NCBI GenBank assembly: GCA_965197905.1
Contig: CBDAOB010000002.1
Location: 352,001 to 416,000, forward strand
DNA: 64,000 nucleotides
Direction: 5' to 3'
Source: Candidatus Latescibacterota bacterium
GTDB taxonomy: Bacteria; Latescibacterota; UBA2968; UBA8231
Notes under the pieces: model-generated
The model's database searches: none
Told to the model about the DNA's origin: nothing
The model's input: the letters and a program-made list of their open reading frames with translations, nothing else
Position numbers and translations under genes: made by a program
Part shown: piece after piece, positions 5,903-13,346 of the stretch
Layout: each line of letters starts with the position of its first letter
How positions within the stretch are numbered: position 1 is the stretch's first letter

Positions 5903-8797
5903 ATGCCTAGCGCGATGACCGCACCACGCCGCAGCTCCGCCTTGCTCGCCGGAGCGTTGTTCACGCTGTCAGGGGCGCTCGGACTGGGGTACCAGCTCGT
6001 GTGGATCCACAAAGCAACCCTGGTCGTGGGCGCAAGCCAGATCGCCCTGGCCACAGTGGTCACCAGCTTCTTCCTGGGACTTGCTCTGGGCAGCCTGGTG
6101 GTGGGGGGGCACCTTCGCAGCCGGCGTTTCTCACCGCTCTACGTCTACGGATTTTTCGAAGCAGCCATCGGCATCTACGCGCTCGCATTTCCGCTATTTT
6201 TCGAGTGGGTTGAGGCTGCGTACGTGGTCCTGTATCCCTTCGTTGCGATCAGCAGCGAGGCGCTCTTCCTGTTGCGCTTTGGACTGCTGTTCCTACTGTT
6301 CCTCGTGCCCACCTTCTTTATGGGAGGCACGCTGCCGCTGCTGCTGGACGGCCTCGTGGAACGAGACGCTGCGATCGGCTCCCTCACCAGCCTATTCTAC
6401 GGCCTCAACATTATGGGCGCCGTGCTCGGCGTGCTGTTAACGGGCTATCTGGCGATCCCCGGCTTGGGCATGAACGGAACCAGCCTTGCCGCCGGCATCG
6501 GGAATCTCTCCATCGCCGCATTGGCCCTCGTCGCCTTTCGGCGTGCGGCACCGATTCACATTCCGTCCGAGGCGGCCAAACGCCTGCCGGGACCGAACGC
6601 CTTCTTCTGCGTTTTGGCCGTTCTCTCAGGGCTCGCGGCGATCGGATACCAGGTTGCCTGGATGCGCTATTTCTCGCTTTTCAAACCAGCCAGCGTGTAC
6701 CTCACCGCGATCCTGCTGGCCGTGTTCCTCGCCGCGCTGGCCGCCGGGAGCATGATCATGGCGCGAGTGCTCGCGAGCGGCATTCACCCTCTGCGGGTCG
6801 TGGCCCTGCTGCAGCCGTTGGCCGCCTTGCTCGTGCTCTACAGCCTGGATTGGTGGACCCTGGCAGGCTACGAGATCCCCTCGCAGACTGCGACGGGGCG
6901 ACCGAGTTGGTACTTTGTTAGCGAAGCCGCCGACGCCACCTTCTTTGCGCCCCTCTTCCAGATCAGCCTCGTGGTCTTTCTTCCCGTGACGCTGCTAGGT
7001 ACTGCGCTCCCCGGTATCATCGCCGCTGCCACGCGACACAGCGCCGAGCTACGGAACGCGGCAGGCCGCCTGGTCTTCTGGAACACGCTGGGCGCGAGCG
7101 CCGGAGGCTTCGCGGCAGGCTATCTCCTGATTCCAGCGTTGGGCCTCACCAGCACGCTGTTCGCTTTGACGCTGCTGACTCTGGCGCTGGGAATTGCTGC
7201 CGAGAGCCGGCTCGTGAGCGCAGGCGGTCGTTCAAGGCGATTCCCCTTCGGTCTGGGTCACGGCTTCTGTATTCTGGTACTGGTCGCCTGCTTTTTGTTC
7301 TTACGGCGCGACGTGACCCTGCATACGGTGCGCACCCATGGTGTGGGTAAAAGGTTCAAGGATGCGCAGCTCATCGACATGGTGGAGGGACCGATCGCGA
7401 CGGCTTCTGTCTTCGCCGACCCAAAGAACCGCTACATCGCATCGGGGGATCAGGTCCTGGCGGTGGTGCGCGACGGCGTGCTCCCCGTCCAGGCGATCGA
7501 GGGCCACCTGCCCGCGCTCTTCTACCCGCGGCCCGGAACGCCGAAGCGCATCCTCGGCATCGCCCTCGGCTCCGGACAGTCCTTCGGGGCCCTGCTGCAC
7601 TATCCGATTGAACACATGGACGTGGTCGACATTTCGCCTGAGATAGTCGAGCTGGCCCTGGAACATTTCCGGGAATTCAACGGTGATCTAGGCAACGAGC
7701 CACGGGTATCCGTGCACCTGGACGACGGACGCCACTTCGTGCAGCGCGCTGCGCCGGCCTCCTACGACGTCGTCTCCATGGAGCCTCCACCACCTACCGC
7801 GGAGGGGGTGCACGCGCTCTACTCGCTGGAGTTCTACCGCGGTGTAGAGCGCGTCCTGCGCGAAGACGGTGTGCTGATGCAGTGGGTGCCTCTGTACTGG
7901 CTCACGCCGAATGAAGCGCGGGGGGTGGTGAAGACGCTGGCGGCCGTCTTCCCCCACACGTTCGTAGTGCGCACGGGCGCGGTCGACTTCATGACGCTGA
8001 GCTTCAAGCGGAAGGACCCGCCTCGCTTCAGCACCGCATGGATCGAGGAGCGCGCGAAGATCTTTGCACAGGAGCGTTGGGTGAAGGCCAAGCGCTGGAC
8101 CGAGGAGTGCCGTCACGAGACCGCGTCGCTGGAGGGCATCCTGGCGCTAATCCACGCTGGTCCGGAAGACATCGCACGCATGCGGGCACCGTACATCTAT
8201 CGGGATGACGACCAGCGCCTGAGCTTCTCTAGCGGCGATCGCCAGCTGTTGCGGCGCTACCCGTTCAAGCGTCGGATCTCCTTCACGTTCGCGGCGCTGC
8301 CGCTAACGCCGTTCCGCGAGCTCCAGCGCTACTTCGTCGAGCCCATTCCGGTGGCCGAGCTCGACGAGGAGCGGGCGCGGGCGCTGAGGGCCGGCCATCA
8401 CCTGGCCTCGCCCGCCGAGGTCGCCGAGGCAGAGAAGCGATTCCGCAGCGCCGCAACGCCGGCGGCTCGCGCGGATTGGGCGCTGCGTGTCGCCGAGCTG
8501 CGGCGCCTCGATTTTGAGGTGAGCCTGGCCTGGCTGCGCCGGGCCATCGACGCTCACCCTGCTAGCGGTAGCGATCGGCGTGCCAACGCGGTCGCGCGGT
8601 CGCACGTACACGTTCACGCGTCAGAGCTGCGGCACTGGATCGACGCGCTCCCGCCGCGGGCGCGGGCGTCGCGCCTTGTGCACGCCGTCGAGAATGAACT
8701 CAAAAGCTACCTGGAGGGCGAGCGCGAGCAGCGCTCGGCGTACCTGTGGCACAAATTGACGCAGACGTTGTCGGTGGGGACGACAGAGTCGGAGTAA
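5903..8797 (+). CDS. Fused MFS/spermidine synthase-like SAM-binding membrane protein (964 aa)
   Basis: Two hydrophobic halves (SGALGLGYQLVW, SGLAAIGYQVAW), then a SAM fold (ILGIALGSGQS, VVDISPEI, DDGRHFV, YDVVSMEPPPP, LYSLEFY) and a helical tail. Confidence 0.85.
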   Translation: MPSAMTAPRRSSALLAGALFTLSGALGLGYQLVWIHKATLVVGASQIALATVVTSFFLGLALGSLVVGGHLRSRRFSPLYVYGFFEAAIGIYALAFPLFFEWVEAAYVVLYPFVAISSEALFLLRFGLLFLLFLVPTFFMGGTLPLLLDGLVERDAAIGSLTSLFYGLNIMGAVLGVLLTGYLAIPGLGMNGTSLAAGIGNLSIAALALVAFRRAAPIHIPSEAAKRLPGPNAFFCVLAVLSGLAAIGYQVAWMRYFSLFKPASVYLTAILLAVFLAALAAGSMIMARVLASGIHPLRVVALLQPLAALLVLYSLDWWTLAGYEIPSQTATGRPSWYFVSEAADATFFAPLFQISLVVFLPVTLLGTALPGIIAAATRHSAELRNAAGRLVFWNTLGASAGGFAAGYLLIPALGLTSTLFALTLLTLALGIAAESRLVSAGGRSRRFPFGLGHGFCILVLVACFLFLRRDVTLHTVRTHGVGKRFKDAQLIDMVEGPIATASVFADPKNRYIASGDQVLAVVRDGVLPVQAIEGHLPALFYPRPGTPKRILGIALGSGQSFGALLHYPIEHMDVVDISPEIVELALEHFREFNGDLGNEPRVSVHLDDGRHFVQRAAPASYDVVSMEPPPPTAEGVHALYSLEFYRGVERVLREDGVLMQWVPLYWLTPNEARGVVKTLAAVFPHTFVVRTGAVDFMTLSFKRKDPPRFSTAWIEERAKIFAQERWVKAKRWTEECRHETASLEGILALIHAGPEDIARMRAPYIYRDDDQRLSFSSGDRQLLRRYPFKRRISFTFAALPLTPFRELQRYFVEPIPVAELDEERARALRAGHHLASPAEVAEAEKRFRSAATPAARADWALRVAELRRLDFEVSLAWLRRAIDAHPASGSDRRANAVARSHVHVHASELRHWIDALPPRARASRLVHAVENELKSYLEGEREQRSAYLWHKLTQTLSVGTTESE

Positions 8798-8925: not shown

Positions 8926-10872
8926 CTATTTCAGCAGGGTCACAGAGCGGGTGGCCGAAAAATCGCCGGCCTCCATCCGGTAGAAATAGGTCCCGCTAGA
9001 CACGGCCTGACCGCTATGATCGCGGCCCTCCCACACCGTCTTGTAGGCCCCCGCACTCAAGGTCTCGTCCACCAGCTTCGCCACCCGCTGGCCGGCCGCG
9101 TTGTACACCTCGATCTTCACCAGCCCAGCGGCACCAGGCGGAACGGTGAACTCGATCGTGGTCGCGGGGTTGAACGGGTTGGGATAGGCCTCGTTCAACG
9201 AGTAGCTGTCGGGCGTGCCTGCGCTTTCGACCTCTTCGACCACGGTCACGCCAGCGCCCAACCTGCGGGTCTGTATATCGAAGGGAATGTGCAGCAACAT
9301 GCCCGGAGGAAAGAAGTCACCAGAATCGCCGAGTCCAGTATGGCCATCCAGTCCATATCTGCCATTCCAATACATGCCGTCCCACGGTCCCGGCTGGCCC
9401 GCATTTCTGCCCTCGTAGGGATCGCCGCCGACTCTGGATCTGTTGTTCTGAACGAAGATGTTCCACTTCGACCCAGACGGCACGAACGGACCGACCGTAT
9501 GGCTTATAAAAATACGGTACATCCCGAAGCCATCCCGTGAATAGGCGTTCCATTGGTGGCCCAATGGGTTGTGATTTTCGGCGCCCAAGACAAACTTTCC
9601 AGTCAGGTCGACCGAAAACCTGGTTAGTGCGGAGAACGAGCCCTGCGGATTCCCAAACCTGGCGGCCAGTTCATCGGGTATCACGTCGCCGTAAAAGTCG
9701 CCCGGGCCATTGGTCCAGATGGGGTCGCCGTTGTGGTCCATCTTGAGAAAGTGTTGGGACCCATGGCCGTGCACGTAGATTCCGCTGTCGTCAACGATAA
9801 TATTGTCCGGTCCACGGAGAGTATGTGTCTCATTGCCATCCGCATCAACATTGATCCAATCGGAGAACTCGGTGACGTCATACTCTTGGAGGAAGGTGCC
9901 GGTGGCCCTGTCCCAGACCTGGACCGTGCCCGTCGGTGGCTCGGATTTGGTGTTGTTCGCGTTATAGAGCTTATCCTGATAAATTTCAAGCACCTTAATT
10001 CTTTCATTCTCCCTACCCTGGGCAGTAGAGAACATGACACCATCGTCGGCCCAATCCGTGACCAGGTCAAACGTCCTGCCGGCGCGATTGATTTTTAGCT
10101 TCAAAATGGCCGGACCCGGTTCGGGCCTCGACACGACCATCCAGAAGATTTCTTCATCGTCGGGATCGGGACGTATACCGCCATCGCTCTGTTTAGTGCC
10201 TTCCCAGGGGATCTTGCTATGAAAGTCCCAGCGTTCCCAGCCATTGGGATTGGCAATGAGATCCGTACCAAACTCTACGCGCGCCACATTGCCAACCTCC
10301 AGACCGAACAACGGTTCGTCGACCTCCGTGGTCCAGTTCTCGGGAGGATCCTTGCGCATATCAATGATAGGGTCGATGAAGCCCGTGCGAGGGGCTACTC
10401 CCATCAGCACCGGGTTATCCAAAACATTGATCCCGATCACGTCGAATTCGTAGTTGCCGGGGCCGACCGCATTACCTTGCCAATCCCGGCCGTCCCAGGT
10501 CACCACGTTGTTGCCCGCTTCCAGATCGGCACCCGGAGTGTTGTTCAGGTACAGGTCCTGCGCCTGAAACCTGTGTATGGAGCCGTTGAGACCGGTGACT
10601 CCCGTCACGTTACTGCCGATCTCGTACACCGAGATCCACACCGTGGCGCGCTGGCTCAGGCTGATCGGAATGTCCACTGAGCCACTCCCGTTCCATGACA
10701 CGTCCGAAGCGGTAATACGCAGCGGGTTCGGAGTCCCTGATTGCTCGGGAAGCGCTGGATTTGTGCCTTCGGGAAGCGAGGGCTGTGCGGGAAAGGTTTG
10801 CGAAAATGTGGAGCTGGCGGCCATAAGGACTACGGCGAGCGCGGCTGCCAACACAAATTGCAGTTTCTGCAT
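8926..10872 (-). CDS. Secreted protein with N-terminal FlgD-like Ig domain, beta-rich core and C-terminal FlgD-Ig/T9SS type-A sorting domain
   Basis: Signal peptide, internal VTWDGRDWQGNAVGPGNY, C-terminal YPNPFNPATTIEF...VYNAAGQRV...WEGRD...SGTYFYRM...LLK. Confidence 0.85.
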   Translation of the reverse strand: MQKLQFVLAAALAVVLMAASSTFSQTFPAQPSLPEGTNPALPEQSGTPNPLRITASDVSWNGSGSVDIPISLSQRATVWISVYEIGSNVTGVTGLNGSIHRFQAQDLYLNNTPGADLEAGNNVVTWDGRDWQGNAVGPGNYEFDVIGINVLDNPVLMGVAPRTGFIDPIIDMRKDPPENWTTEVDEPLFGLEVGNVARVEFGTDLIANPNGWERWDFHSKIPWEGTKQSDGGIRPDPDDEEIFWMVVSRPEPGPAILKLKINRAGRTFDLVTDWADDGVMFSTAQGRENERIKVLEIYQDKLYNANNTKSEPPTGTVQVWDRATGTFLQEYDVTEFSDWINVDADGNETHTLRGPDNIIVDDSGIYVHGHGSQHFLKMDHNGDPIWTNGPGDFYGDVIPDELAARFGNPQGSFSALTRFSVDLTGKFVLGAENHNPLGHQWNAYSRDGFGMYRIFISHTVGPFVPSGSKWNIFVQNNRSRVGGDPYEGRNAGQPGPWDGMYWNGRYGLDGHTGLGDSGDFFPPGMLLHIPFDIQTRRLGAGVTVVEEVESAGTPDSYSLNEAYPNPFNPATTIEFTVPPGAAGLVKIEVYNAAGQRVAKLVDETLSAGAYKTVWEGRDHSGQAVSSGTYFYRMEAGDFSATRSVTLLK

Positions 10873-10977: not shown

Positions 10978-11005
10978 TATTTTTACGCAATTAGCATTTT
11001 AAGAC

Positions 11006-11034
11006 TTGACATTCGCCCTCTTATTGGTTATCTT
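11006..11034 (+). promoter_or_regulatory. Transposase promoter starting inside the left TIR
   Basis: TTGACA-17 nt-TATCTT, 36 nt upstream of ATG 11070. Confidence 0.65.
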
Positions 11035-11069
11035 AAATATAAGAAAAACAAGCAATACGGGAGCGAAGA

Positions 11070-11939
11070 ATGAACTTGATTACCGTGACAGAGAGATTCC
11101 CGACGCAAGAATCCTGCATTGCTCATCTGGAGCGGATACGCTTCGGCGATGAGCCCTTTTGCCCCTTGTGCGGCACGGTCGGGGAATGCGCCCGCAAGAA
11201 GCAGGGGAATGTAATCGGGCGTTGGAACTGTCACGCTTGCAAATCCAGCTTCAATGTCTTATCCCAGACCATGTTTCAAGGCACGCATCTTCCCTTGCAA
11301 AAGTGGTTCTGCGCCATCGCCCTGATCGTGAACGCCAAGAAAAGCCTGTCCAGTTGCCAGCTCGGGCGTGACTTGAACCTGAATCAGCGGTCCGCCTGGT
11401 ACATGCAACAGCGCATCCGGGCTGAAATGGCTACCAAGCAGGGAAGAATCAGGTTAACTGGACTCATCGAAGCCGACGAGACCTACGTCGGCGGACGCCC
11501 CAGGAAGCGCAACAGGCGCGACGACGACAAACCCAACCTCAGAGGACGGGGAACGCGCAAGACCGCGGTTATCGGCGCTGTGGAGCGCTCAGGGAAGGTT
11601 GTGGCTCAGGTCGCCGACGATCTCTCCGCTAAGGGCGTGCTCGAGTTTATCAAACGTGCCATCAATCCTGACGCCTCGACGTTGGTCACGGACGAATATG
11701 GGGCCTACAACGTAGTGCGGCGGATCATGGATCACTGCGTGATTCAGCATTCCAAGCGTTATGTTGATGGCACGATTCACACGAACACGATCGAAGGCGT
11801 GTGGTCTTTGCTCAAGCGGGCGTGGTATGGATCGCATCATCACTACACGCCGCTTTACGTGGCCGAGGCTTGTTTCAAGTACAATCACCGCGACGACGAC
11901 AACGCCTTCGGTTCTTTCCTACAAGGGTGCTTCAAGTAA
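11070..11939 (+). CDS. IS1595 family transposase
   Basis: Zn ribbon CPLCG...CHAC, HTH, DDE motifs EADETYVGG / LVTDEY / HTNTIEGVWSLLKR. Confidence 0.95.
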   Translation: MNLITVTERFPTQESCIAHLERIRFGDEPFCPLCGTVGECARKKQGNVIGRWNCHACKSSFNVLSQTMFQGTHLPLQKWFCAIALIVNAKKSLSSCQLGRDLNLNQRSAWYMQQRIRAEMATKQGRIRLTGLIEADETYVGGRPRKRNRRDDDKPNLRGRGTRKTAVIGAVERSGKVVAQVADDLSAKGVLEFIKRAINPDASTLVTDEYGAYNVVRRIMDHCVIQHSKRYVDGTIHTNTIEGVWSLLKRAWYGSHHHYTPLYVAEACFKYNHRDDDNAFGSFLQGCFK

Positions 11940-12025
11940 TTGCGGATTCGCCGTTGGCCTGGCCTCGAAGTGAGGAAGCTTACGGGAATTATCGCAAACC
12001 ACTTTAGGGGGAAAGGCCAAAGTCG

Positions 12026-12458
12026 TTAATAAGAGAAGGTAAAATGACCGTCACATGACACCGTTAAAACGCCTCGTTTTAAAACGTCTTGGCCTAAAAG
12101 AACTCCATACTTAGCATTTGAACCAGGATTGAAATGTATAGCTTGAACCAACATAAGTTGTAATTTTGCTCCATTCGGATCTTGTTCGTCTTCAAACGCG
12201 AATCCAACCAGAACGTTATAAGCGTTCATGGTTAACGTTATAAGCGTTCATGGTTACAGCCCGCTCAGAGTTTTGAATATCTACTTGCCCGATTGGTTCT
12301 AAGTTTAGAGCTTCAACAACTGACGGTGATATGCATGTGTATGTGGCTCCAGTGTCAACTAATGCGGTGCAAGGATGGATATTATCTTCATCGACAGCTA
12401 TAGCAACGTCACATGTAATGCCAACTGCCCAGTCAAACCGAGATACTACCACGGACAT
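12026..12458 (-). pseudogene. Retropepsin-like (clan AA) aspartyl protease, frameshifted by a 22-bp tandem duplication
   Basis: ALVDTGATYTCIS in 12216..12458 and LLGQDVL in 12026..12229. Removing one repeat copy gives a single 136-aa ORF. Confidence 0.85.
12212..12255. repeat. Perfect 22-bp tandem duplication AACGTTATAAGCGTTCATGGTT x2
   Basis: 12212-12233 is identical to 12234-12255. Confidence 0.95.
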
Positions 12459-12690
12459 GAGAAAAATACCCCAAATCTATAGGTCGTGAAGATACCTTTT
12501 GAATGGAAAATAATTTTCCAGGCAGGAACGTTTTTCCTGCTTCAATAGCATCCTGGCCGGTTTCAAACAAAGCCACAATTCCCCCGTTATGCATTAGAGC
12601 CGTTTTCCCATAATCGGTCTTGGACAGATTTGCAAGTTGCTCTTTGAAAGCATGGTAATTTCTCTCCACTTCTTCCTGCTGGGTTGGCAT
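12433..12690 (-). CDS. Small DUF5678-like protein (85 aa), overlapping the protease start
   Basis: ERNYHAFKEQL...YGKTALMHNGGIVALFET..DAIEAG pattern recalled from small proteins preceding clan-AA proteases. 26-nt overlap with the protease gene. Confidence 0.7.
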   Translation of the reverse strand: MPTQQEEVERNYHAFKEQLANLSKTDYGKTALMHNGGIVALFETGQDAIEAGKTFLPGKLFSIQKVSSRPIDLGYFSHVRGSISV

Positions 12691-12754
12691 GTGAGTACCC
12701 TCGTGGCTTTTAGTGGGTGCTACACTGAAAACCTAGTCGAATGGTGTATACGCT

Positions 12755-12783
12755 ATAATACGCGCATTTGAGCGTATTATCAA
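12755..12783 (-). promoter_or_regulatory. Promoter with overlapping palindromic operator for the small-gene/protease pair
   Basis: Minus strand TTGATA-17-TATTAT, overlapped by inverted repeat ATAATACGC-N8-GCGTATTAT (12755-12780). Confidence 0.65.
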
Positions 12784-12795
12784 GAATTATTCAGT

Positions 12796-13020
12796 TCACC
12801 CAGTTCCCAACCCCGGGCTCTTGCCAATTTCAACATAAAAATCTCCATCCAAATGCAAGAAGCGTTCTTCGAATTCGCTATAAGGTATGATTGTTTCTGG
12901 TTCACAAACCAACCTTAAGATTTTCGCATATCCCAACTTCTCTTCTATTATTCCTTTGCTTGTGTCTGTTCCTCCCGTTTGATGCTCCAATAGAATAACT
13001 GTTCCAATTGGCGAAGCCAT
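12796..13020 (-). CDS. Hypothetical 74-aa passenger protein
   Basis: Strong AAGGAGGT RBS before the ATG, AT-rich, no recognisable motif. Confidence 0.6.
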   Translation of the reverse strand: MASPIGTVILLEHQTGGTDTSKGIIEEKLGYAKILRLVCEPETIIPYSEFEERFLHLDGDFYVEIGKSPGLGTG

Positions 13021-13060
13021 GATACCTCCTTCTAAAAGTTGGGTAGTATCCTAATAACCG

Positions 13061-13114
13061 AATGTCAAGATTGTCGCCAGTCCAAATTGTTCTATTTTTG
13101 AAGTTGGGTTCCAT
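13061..13114 (-). pseudogene. N-terminal remnant of a site-specific DNA methyltransferase-like gene
   Basis: MEPNFKNRTIWTGDNLDI resembles the start of N4/N6 MTases (normally continuing LRG...DLIYLDPPF), then the sequence diverges. Confidence 0.55.
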
Positions 13115-13131
13115 TGCGCGTTGACAAGGGG

Positions 13132-13160
13132 AATGTATTGAAGTTACTTCGCGAGGGCAA
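13132..13160 (-). promoter_or_regulatory. Inward promoter from the right TIR driving passenger genes
   Basis: Minus strand TTGCCC-17-TACATT, upstream of ATG 13114. Confidence 0.5.
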
Positions 13161-13346
13161 GTCTTAAAATGCTAATTGCGTATTTTTTCGTGATTTTCAC
13201 AGCGATATATGGTGGTCGGAAACGTTTGAGAGACACGATCTGCGCTGTCGTATGCGGACGAAGGGAAATAACTTCCGAGACGGAAAGGAACTATTTTCCT
13301 GCGCCTGGGTATTCTCTGGGAAATTTAGTCTGGAAAGGGCGGTTTC

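Follow-up and report, generated by a model that had tools for sequence, protein, structure and literature searches.

The 64,000-nucleotide stretch of a Latescibacterota genome analysed here (the window) carries two small overlapping genes on its reverse strand, one encoding an 85-aa protein and the other a retropepsin-like aspartic protease whose start codon (12458) lies inside the 3′ end of the first, giving an overlap of 26 nt. As assembled, the protease is divided into two ORFs of 80 and 67 aa, the first of which contains the motif DTGA and lies above the Pfam cut-offs for Asp_protease_2 and gag-asp_proteas, while the second contains LLGQD. Removal of a single 22-bp copy yields a protein of 136 aa, and the two pieces match a family profile built from intact relatives at positions 1–85 and 80–149. 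A first-pass annotation had described this gene order, both motifs and the repaired length, all of which were recovered (Table 1). It had further proposed that the pair forms a protease-based toxin–antitoxin (TA), defence or addiction module on a mobile element, with the small protein acting as inhibitor, substrate or activator. A search of the whole genome found no further intact copy of either gene beyond two transposon copies. Contigs from RNA runs (X4, X5) were identical to parts of the pair, which is no proof of transcription.

Table 1 Features of the gene pair and of the element that carries it, in window coordinates.
Feature	Position	Strand	Details
Left target-site duplication, 8 bp	10978..10985	.	
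Left terminal inverted repeat, 23 bp	10986..11008	+	
IS1595-family transposase, 289 aa (Zn ribbon + DDE_Tnp_IS1595)	11070..11939	+	PF12762 E 8e-34, PF12760 E 6e-7
Retropepsin-like aspartic protease gene (DTGA ... LLGQD)	12026..12458	-	Predicted toxin
22-bp perfect tandem duplication shifting the protease frame	12212..12255	.	Probably a consensus artefact of assembly
Small DUF5678-related gene, 85 aa	12433..12690	-	Predicted antitoxin or inhibitor
Tail codons DLGYFSHV of the small gene, conserved	12454..12477	-	His-Val codons contain the protease ATG (12458-12456)
Sigma-70-like promoter match TTGATA-17-TATTAT with overlapping 9-bp inverted repeat	12755..12783	-	
Passenger ORF, 74 aa, no family found	12796..13020	-	Outside the conserved pair
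Right terminal inverted repeat, 23 bp	13158..13180	-	
Right target-site duplication	13181..13188	.	7/8 letters match the left

The pair is carried as passengers by an IS1595-family element of ~2.2 kb (10986–13180) with perfect 23-bp terminal inverted repeats, and the kilobase from 12001 to 13000 has a G+C content of 42%, compared with 52–66% in the rest of the window. A second copy lies at another site in the same genome (G000:C3:784944-787144), and is flanked by a perfect 8-bp target duplication; a single substitution and, where the window has its 22-bp repeat, a 28-bp duplication are all that set it apart from the window copy. The hallmarks of an IS1595 element with passengers, namely a DDE transposase with a Zn ribbon, terminal inverted repeats, an 8-bp duplication and copies at different sites, were therefore all present, confirming the earlier placement of the pair on a mobile element. 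Both insertions share one 8-base A/T-rich target (window 10978-10985; G000:C3:784936-784943), which suggests a target preference. Two related IS1595 elements of the same genome (L003, G000:C3:205973-207892; L002, G000:C5:1661331-1664753) have similar terminal repeats and other cargo, one having a broken transposase and one a 532-aa lipoprotein-like ORF. The 74-aa passenger ORF had no Pfam, PHROG, PADLOC or Atlas match and, among the loci fetched, occurred only in the two genome copies; contigs with 3–4 differences across this stretch in runs X1 and X6 suggest that it rides other elements too. The genes beside the element, encoding a 964-aa membrane protein with a spermidine-synthase domain (5903-8797, + strand) and a 648-aa secreted protein with FlgD-Ig and C-terminal sorting-like domains (8926-10872, − strand), are unrelated to the pair.

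The frameshift in the window protease was examined in read graphs from two short-read runs of one sample (X1 and X2), possibly the source of the assembly. In these graphs, the left unitig ends at L001 6201, a 59-base unitig (depth 3) and a 31-base unitig (depth 2) follow, and the right unitig begins from 6201. Of five simulated allele mixtures, only the combination of an un-duplicated allele with the 28-bp duplication reproduced this pattern, whereas mixtures of the 22-bp and 28-bp alleles broke the left unitig at 6193 instead, and the 22-bp duplicated allele was absent from both graphs. The sample therefore contains an intact, un-duplicated protease allele, and the 28-bp frameshift is genuine, while the 22-bp frameshift is probably not in the organism’s DNA. 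The window copy is probably the intact allele, a link that stays at this strength because contigs drop rare variants and do not tie an allele to its flanks. An origin of both frameshifts by separate duplications at a single hotspot was abandoned, as the read graphs contain just one of the two, and the single substitution of the C3 copy, a change to DTGAP, was unsupported by X1, X2 and X5.

The first-pass annotation had assigned the pair a dedicated promoter overlapped by an inverted repeat, in the manner of an operator. A TTGATA-17-TATTAT match is indeed present (12783–12755), though it is plausible only, as such sites occurred at chance level in the scan (2 found versus 2.4 +/- 1.7 expected). 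The overlapping inverted repeat (9-bp arms at 12755–12763 and 12772–12780, 8-nt spacer) is likewise present and locally unusual, being equalled in 2 of 200 shuffles. Among relatives, however, upstream inverted repeats reached p<0.05 in 4 of 48 cases, which is the chance level, and shared no sequence. A conserved operator was consequently rejected, the repeat being found in the window only. The small protein matched no HTH, RHH or AbrB family. Operator-based autoregulation thus found no backing, with the repeat unconserved and no known DNA-binding family or fold found in the small protein, and on present sequence evidence it is probably not a family trait.

The protease belongs to a family of single domains of ~100–150 aa with the D[TS]G and hydrophobic–hydrophobic–Gly–x–Asp motifs. 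Residues M1, L40, D42, G44, A45 and G128 are invariant in 48 intact relatives and D130 is conserved in 90% or more, while TIGR03698 and TIGR02281 match 29 and 20 of the 48, respectively. The model predicted for one relative (L060, pLDDT 95.2) has the fold of APRc (RC1339) of Rickettsia conorii (E 8.8e-5, TM 0.58/0.65 against 5c9f) and of retroviral proteases, and the family shares both fold and motifs with APRc and with the FIV, RSV and HTLV-1 enzymes, at an identity to APRc and other retropepsins of 12–18%. Its best sequence match is the RVP domain of Ddi1 (E 2.4e-6). No signal peptide was evident by hydropathy in the window protease (maximum 19-residue window 1.39; family median 0.98), and a hydrophobic N-terminal window above 1.8 occurred in only one of the 48 relatives, which makes a cytoplasmic location probable for the family. 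Whereas APRc processes itself and is linked to the membrane, the protease of the pair appears as a stand-alone cytoplasmic domain that has an obligate small partner. Clan AA aspartic proteases of this type must dimerise. Proteases of a distant subfamily (L042, L137, L140) end in a SEC-C-like motif, GRNDxCPCGSG, and their partners in a different conserved tail, T[FY]HSR, while another subfamily ends in LPASVLY.

A full HMMER search recovered 350 relatives of the small protein at the level of 50% clusters, and 97 proteins, those of 75–100 aa among the best 150, were aligned. PF18929 (DUF5678) weakly matched 27 of the 97 at E<=0.1 (best 4.4e-5), while the window protein fell below the family cut-off (23.2 bits) with no match at all; an Atlas lead (0.89) pointed to a cluster whose members are 10% DUF5678. 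By sequence, the window protein is thus best placed in a DUF5678-related subfamily and is no member by threshold. It had no Pfam, PADLOC or PHROG match and no plasmid match. Its predicted model (pLDDT 77) comprises a helix, two strands, a helix, a strand and a low-confidence tail, and a fold search gave no match with Z>=5 among 48,161 chains and no Foldseek match with E<=0.001, negatives from which no new or different fold can be concluded. A search for longer or fused forms yielded three proteins, none of them with a recorded Pfam domain and one consisting of the domain repeated in tandem, which is weak evidence. Tandem duplications of the small domain, together with one ORF fused to an HTH-like N-terminal part (judged by eye from the sequence), were observed in P0008, P0010, P0011, P0140 and P0051. 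Relatives of the pair match the two components of a cassette of DUF5678 (PF18929) and a clan AA protease (TIGR03698 / TIGR02281), the small proteins weakly. The window protein differs from this cassette in having no PF18929 match and in its own DLG[FY][FY]SH tail, in which the protease start codon is embedded. No published function for DUF5678 was found in a literature search that reached few subscription journals.

With few exceptions, the 71 protease-anchored loci, which were not selected on the tail, encode a small protein with the tail motif [DN]LG[FYW][FYL]S[HY]A, and in 69 of them the protease ATG falls within the His/Tyr-Ala codons. Synonymous codons in the tail vary freely, and the six Leu, four Gly and four TCN Ser codons all occur, so that the motif is kept as protein and is under selection at that level, apart from the overlap; the same variation rules out conservation merely as a ribosome-binding site. 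Aspartic proteases often cleave between aromatic residues. As the aromatic pair resembles such a cleavage site, the tail is a candidate pseudo-substrate, or it may alternatively complete the terminal dimer sheet. Mean identity was 0.44 for the small protein and 0.32 for the protease, and the distances of the two partners are correlated (Mantel rho 0.365 versus 0.221 for the best of 2000 shuffles), for which shared descent alone could suffice.

Co-occurrence was surveyed from both sides of the pair. The small-gene-anchored set, the best 80 of 106 confirmed loci in GTDB genomes, spans the Alpha- and Gammaproteobacteria, Latescibacterota, Acidobacteriota, Chloroflexota, Spirochaetia, Nitrospirae, Planctomycetota and others. 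Within it the downstream protease was intact at 50 loci, cut by a contig end at one and broken at 29, and no small gene lacked at least a protease remnant. Classified by eye, 19 of the 29 broken proteases had large deletions or truncations and 10 had small lesions, which are possibly assembly errors, as the window’s own lesion probably is; two of the latter alter the catalytic motif (DTEA in L050, DAGA in L051). The first protease codons were retained in all nine loci that the protease profile missed. From the other side, among the best 80 of 252 confirmed protease loci in metagenomes, the upstream small gene was whole at 72 (two with a run-on C-terminus) and met a contig end at seven, while the sole locus lacking it had a protease that was itself 5′-truncated. 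The earlier expectation that a neighbourhood survey would find the genes together was thus borne out, with almost obligate co-occurrence across phyla.

The decay of the pair runs one way. The partner was broken at 29 of 79 small-gene-anchored loci versus 0 of 72 protease-anchored loci (Fisher p 3e-10, a value that is overstated, as kin are not independent, the two collections differ and each set was selected for an intact anchor). After clustering at 90% identity, 26 of 73 clusters had a broken protease and 0 of 55 a broken small gene, and broken proteases also occurred in the genomes outside the UUID-named set (14 of 53). In the window’s own phylum, where 168 genomes were searched both ways, 30 small-gene loci were fetched, of which 16 had an intact protease (the window being scored as broken), and 30 protease loci, of which 28 had the small gene upstream, the other two being a contig edge and a 5′-truncated protease. 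The distribution is patchy (43 of these 168 genomes). Damaged small genes were found only beside broken proteases (L039, L092, L102, L115). At one locus (L029 and L131, G158:C13) a rearrangement has split the pair, leaving the small gene and the first protease codons ~38 kb from a 5′-truncated protease. For comparison, counts in PMC13617665 for validated type II TA systems of Photorhabdus give the toxin alone broken in 185 cases, both genes in 186 and the antitoxin alone in 8. This match in decay order suggests that the protease is likely the harmful part and the small protein its guard. Of the three roles proposed for the partner, one-way decay narrows the choice towards inhibitor, with substrate and activator less favoured.

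Among the 150 neighbouring ORFs listed, 143 were scanned and 60 had a Pfam match, of which 13 were mobile, TA or defence-type and 47 were not defence genes, most being housekeeping. No third gene or target gene was conserved among the 143; only FtsK/LolA recurs, in eight alphaproteobacterial loci, where the pair adjoins ftsK and/or lolA (L083, L107, L108, L110, L113, L119, L124 and L126, mostly sphingomonads). Further signs of mobility are neighbours that are unrelated between loci, a second kind of IS1595 element, bounded by 24-nt terminal repeats, that encloses the pair at L057, and an IS1595 transposase adjoining it at L036 and L045. Thirteen protease loci are on viral contigs, all with a full or partial match to the small family upstream. 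In PADLOC, the protease weakly matches the B component of PDC-M08 (4 of 4 proteases, E 2e-4 to 0.05), while none of the 97 small proteins matched the PDC-M08 partner models, so the pair does not qualify as PDC-M08. The make-up of PDC-M08 is absent from the main text of 10.1101/2024.01.29.577857, and a search for literature on PDC-M08 found none. With most identified neighbours housekeeping and the PADLOC matches weak and confined to the protease, the defence role proposed in the first-pass annotation gained little.

Several known systems resemble the pair in part. E. coli Lit is likewise a mobile-element protease that damages the host cell once activated, as is predicted for this module. It is, however, a Zn enzyme that responds to a phage peptide, and no cognate inhibitor gene is known to accompany it. 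Like type II TA systems, including pairs borne on Tn3-family transposons (PMC7157771) and eroding chromosomal ones (PMC13617665), the pair consists of two small coupled genes with the smaller first, is patchy, mobile and transposon-borne and loses its putative toxin first. Two small coupled genes, a mobile patchy distribution and toxin-first decay are thus all in place. The pair differs in that its putative toxin is an aspartic protease and that no known DNA-binding domain or conserved operator was found for its partner, features that are usual though not universal in type II TA systems. The TA-type proteases mentioned in the relevant part of Makarova 2009 (PMC2701414) are Zn proteases with HTH partners only, with no aspartic protease among them, and term look-ups in the main texts of PMC2701414, PMC6393860, PMC4158269 and PMC9425974 returned no aspartic-protease pair. 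The Pseudomonas RimB and RloA-type retropepsins are likewise bacterial single-domain enzymes; they sit in Rim/Rlo operons, and those of the Rlo type are reported to be secreted (PMC11957791, PMC12239564), whereas no such neighbours were found around the pair. No publication describing the pair itself came up in the literature searched, which took in few subscription journals.

Taken as a whole, the overlapping pair is best interpreted, with moderate confidence, as a self-contained mobile module of TA type, its aspartic protease being a harmful cytoplasmic enzyme that the coupled small protein keeps in check. The pairing, the start codon fixed within the partner’s tail, the mobility and the one-way decay are the observations from which this reading starts, while toxicity and binding, like the target and the trigger, are inferred. 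The overlap would couple translation, so that the protease would be made only after its partner; the protease would dimerise and could cut one or more cellular proteins in the cytoplasm. The partner is expected to bind it, most likely through the DLG[FY][FY]S[HY] tail acting as a pseudo-substrate or as a propeptide in trans. Loss of the partner, through loss of the element, stress or phage, would free the protease and arrest growth, and breaking the protease first would be the cell’s way out. Of the two transposon copies here, one already has its protease broken by the 28-bp duplication and the other is probably intact. The first-pass proposal of a protease-based TA module is therefore strengthened by co-occurrence, mobility and protease-first decay, while its operator part found no support. 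In a bolder version, which we put forward tentatively and at somewhat less than even chances, the pair would represent a widespread undescribed class of TA or abortive-infection systems with a retroviral-type aspartic protease as toxin and a trans-encoded propeptide as antitoxin, whose aromatic tail would plug the active site while its codons hold the toxin start, and whose removal or mimicry by phage or stress would release the enzyme.

A dedicated anti-phage role by abortive infection, in which a phage protein would displace or mimic the tail and so switch the protease on, overlaps the TA interpretation and is rather unlikely as the main role; the weak PDC-M08B matches of all four proteases, the 13 mobile, TA or defence-type genes among 60 identified neighbours and the pairs on viral contigs are consistent with it, but the absence of a PDC-M08 partner match in 97 small proteins and the 47 non-defence neighbours are not. 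Alternatively, the pair could be a regulated protease with a split propeptide that performs a useful but dispensable job, for example on a stress or signalling target, the free enzyme being mildly costly and the module non-addictive. The decay order would be identical if the unrestrained enzyme were costly, the lack of any operator or DNA-binding domain found is as this account would have it, and the pair is kept near ftsK/lolA in eight alphaproteobacterial loci. Against this stand the lack of a conserved third partner or target gene among 143 neighbours and a patchy distribution (43 of 168 genomes of the phylum) with more than a third of proteases broken, which ill fits a steady benefit, making this account unlikely.

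One-way decay would equally follow if the small protein were useful alone and selected independently, with the protease an optional enzyme acting on its aromatic tail to trim or degrade it. Its higher mean identity, its persistence beside a broken protease in 29 of 79 loci and the resemblance of the tail to a cleavage site agree with this, yet among the best 80 of 106 GTDB loci none lacked a protease remnant, and small genes decay once the protease is gone (L039, L092), so that independent usefulness appears distinctly improbable. The converse assignment, in which the small protein would be the toxin and the protease would destroy it, was excluded, since proteases are commonly lost. Finally, the pair could be a neutral passenger whose apparent asymmetry stems from the design of the searches and from errors in assembly, given that each search keeps its best 80 only and that the window’s own frameshift looks artefactual. 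However, 19 of the 29 lesions are large deletions or truncations, the pattern recurs in the same 168 genomes searched both ways and outside the UUID-named set (14 of 53), and errors should strike small genes too, of which 0 of 72 were struck; this explanation is very improbable.

If the TA-like interpretation is true, aspartic proteolysis would join the known chemistries of TA toxins, a first function would be assigned to the DUF5678-related family, which numbers at least 350 clusters at 50% identity, and a natural protein inhibitor of the retropepsin fold would be at hand. It would also give a reason for the many stand-alone HIV-protease-like genes in bacteria and archaea. Intact pairs are carried by two cultured sphingomonads, Sphingobium algorifonticola (L126) and Sphingomonas gellani (L127).
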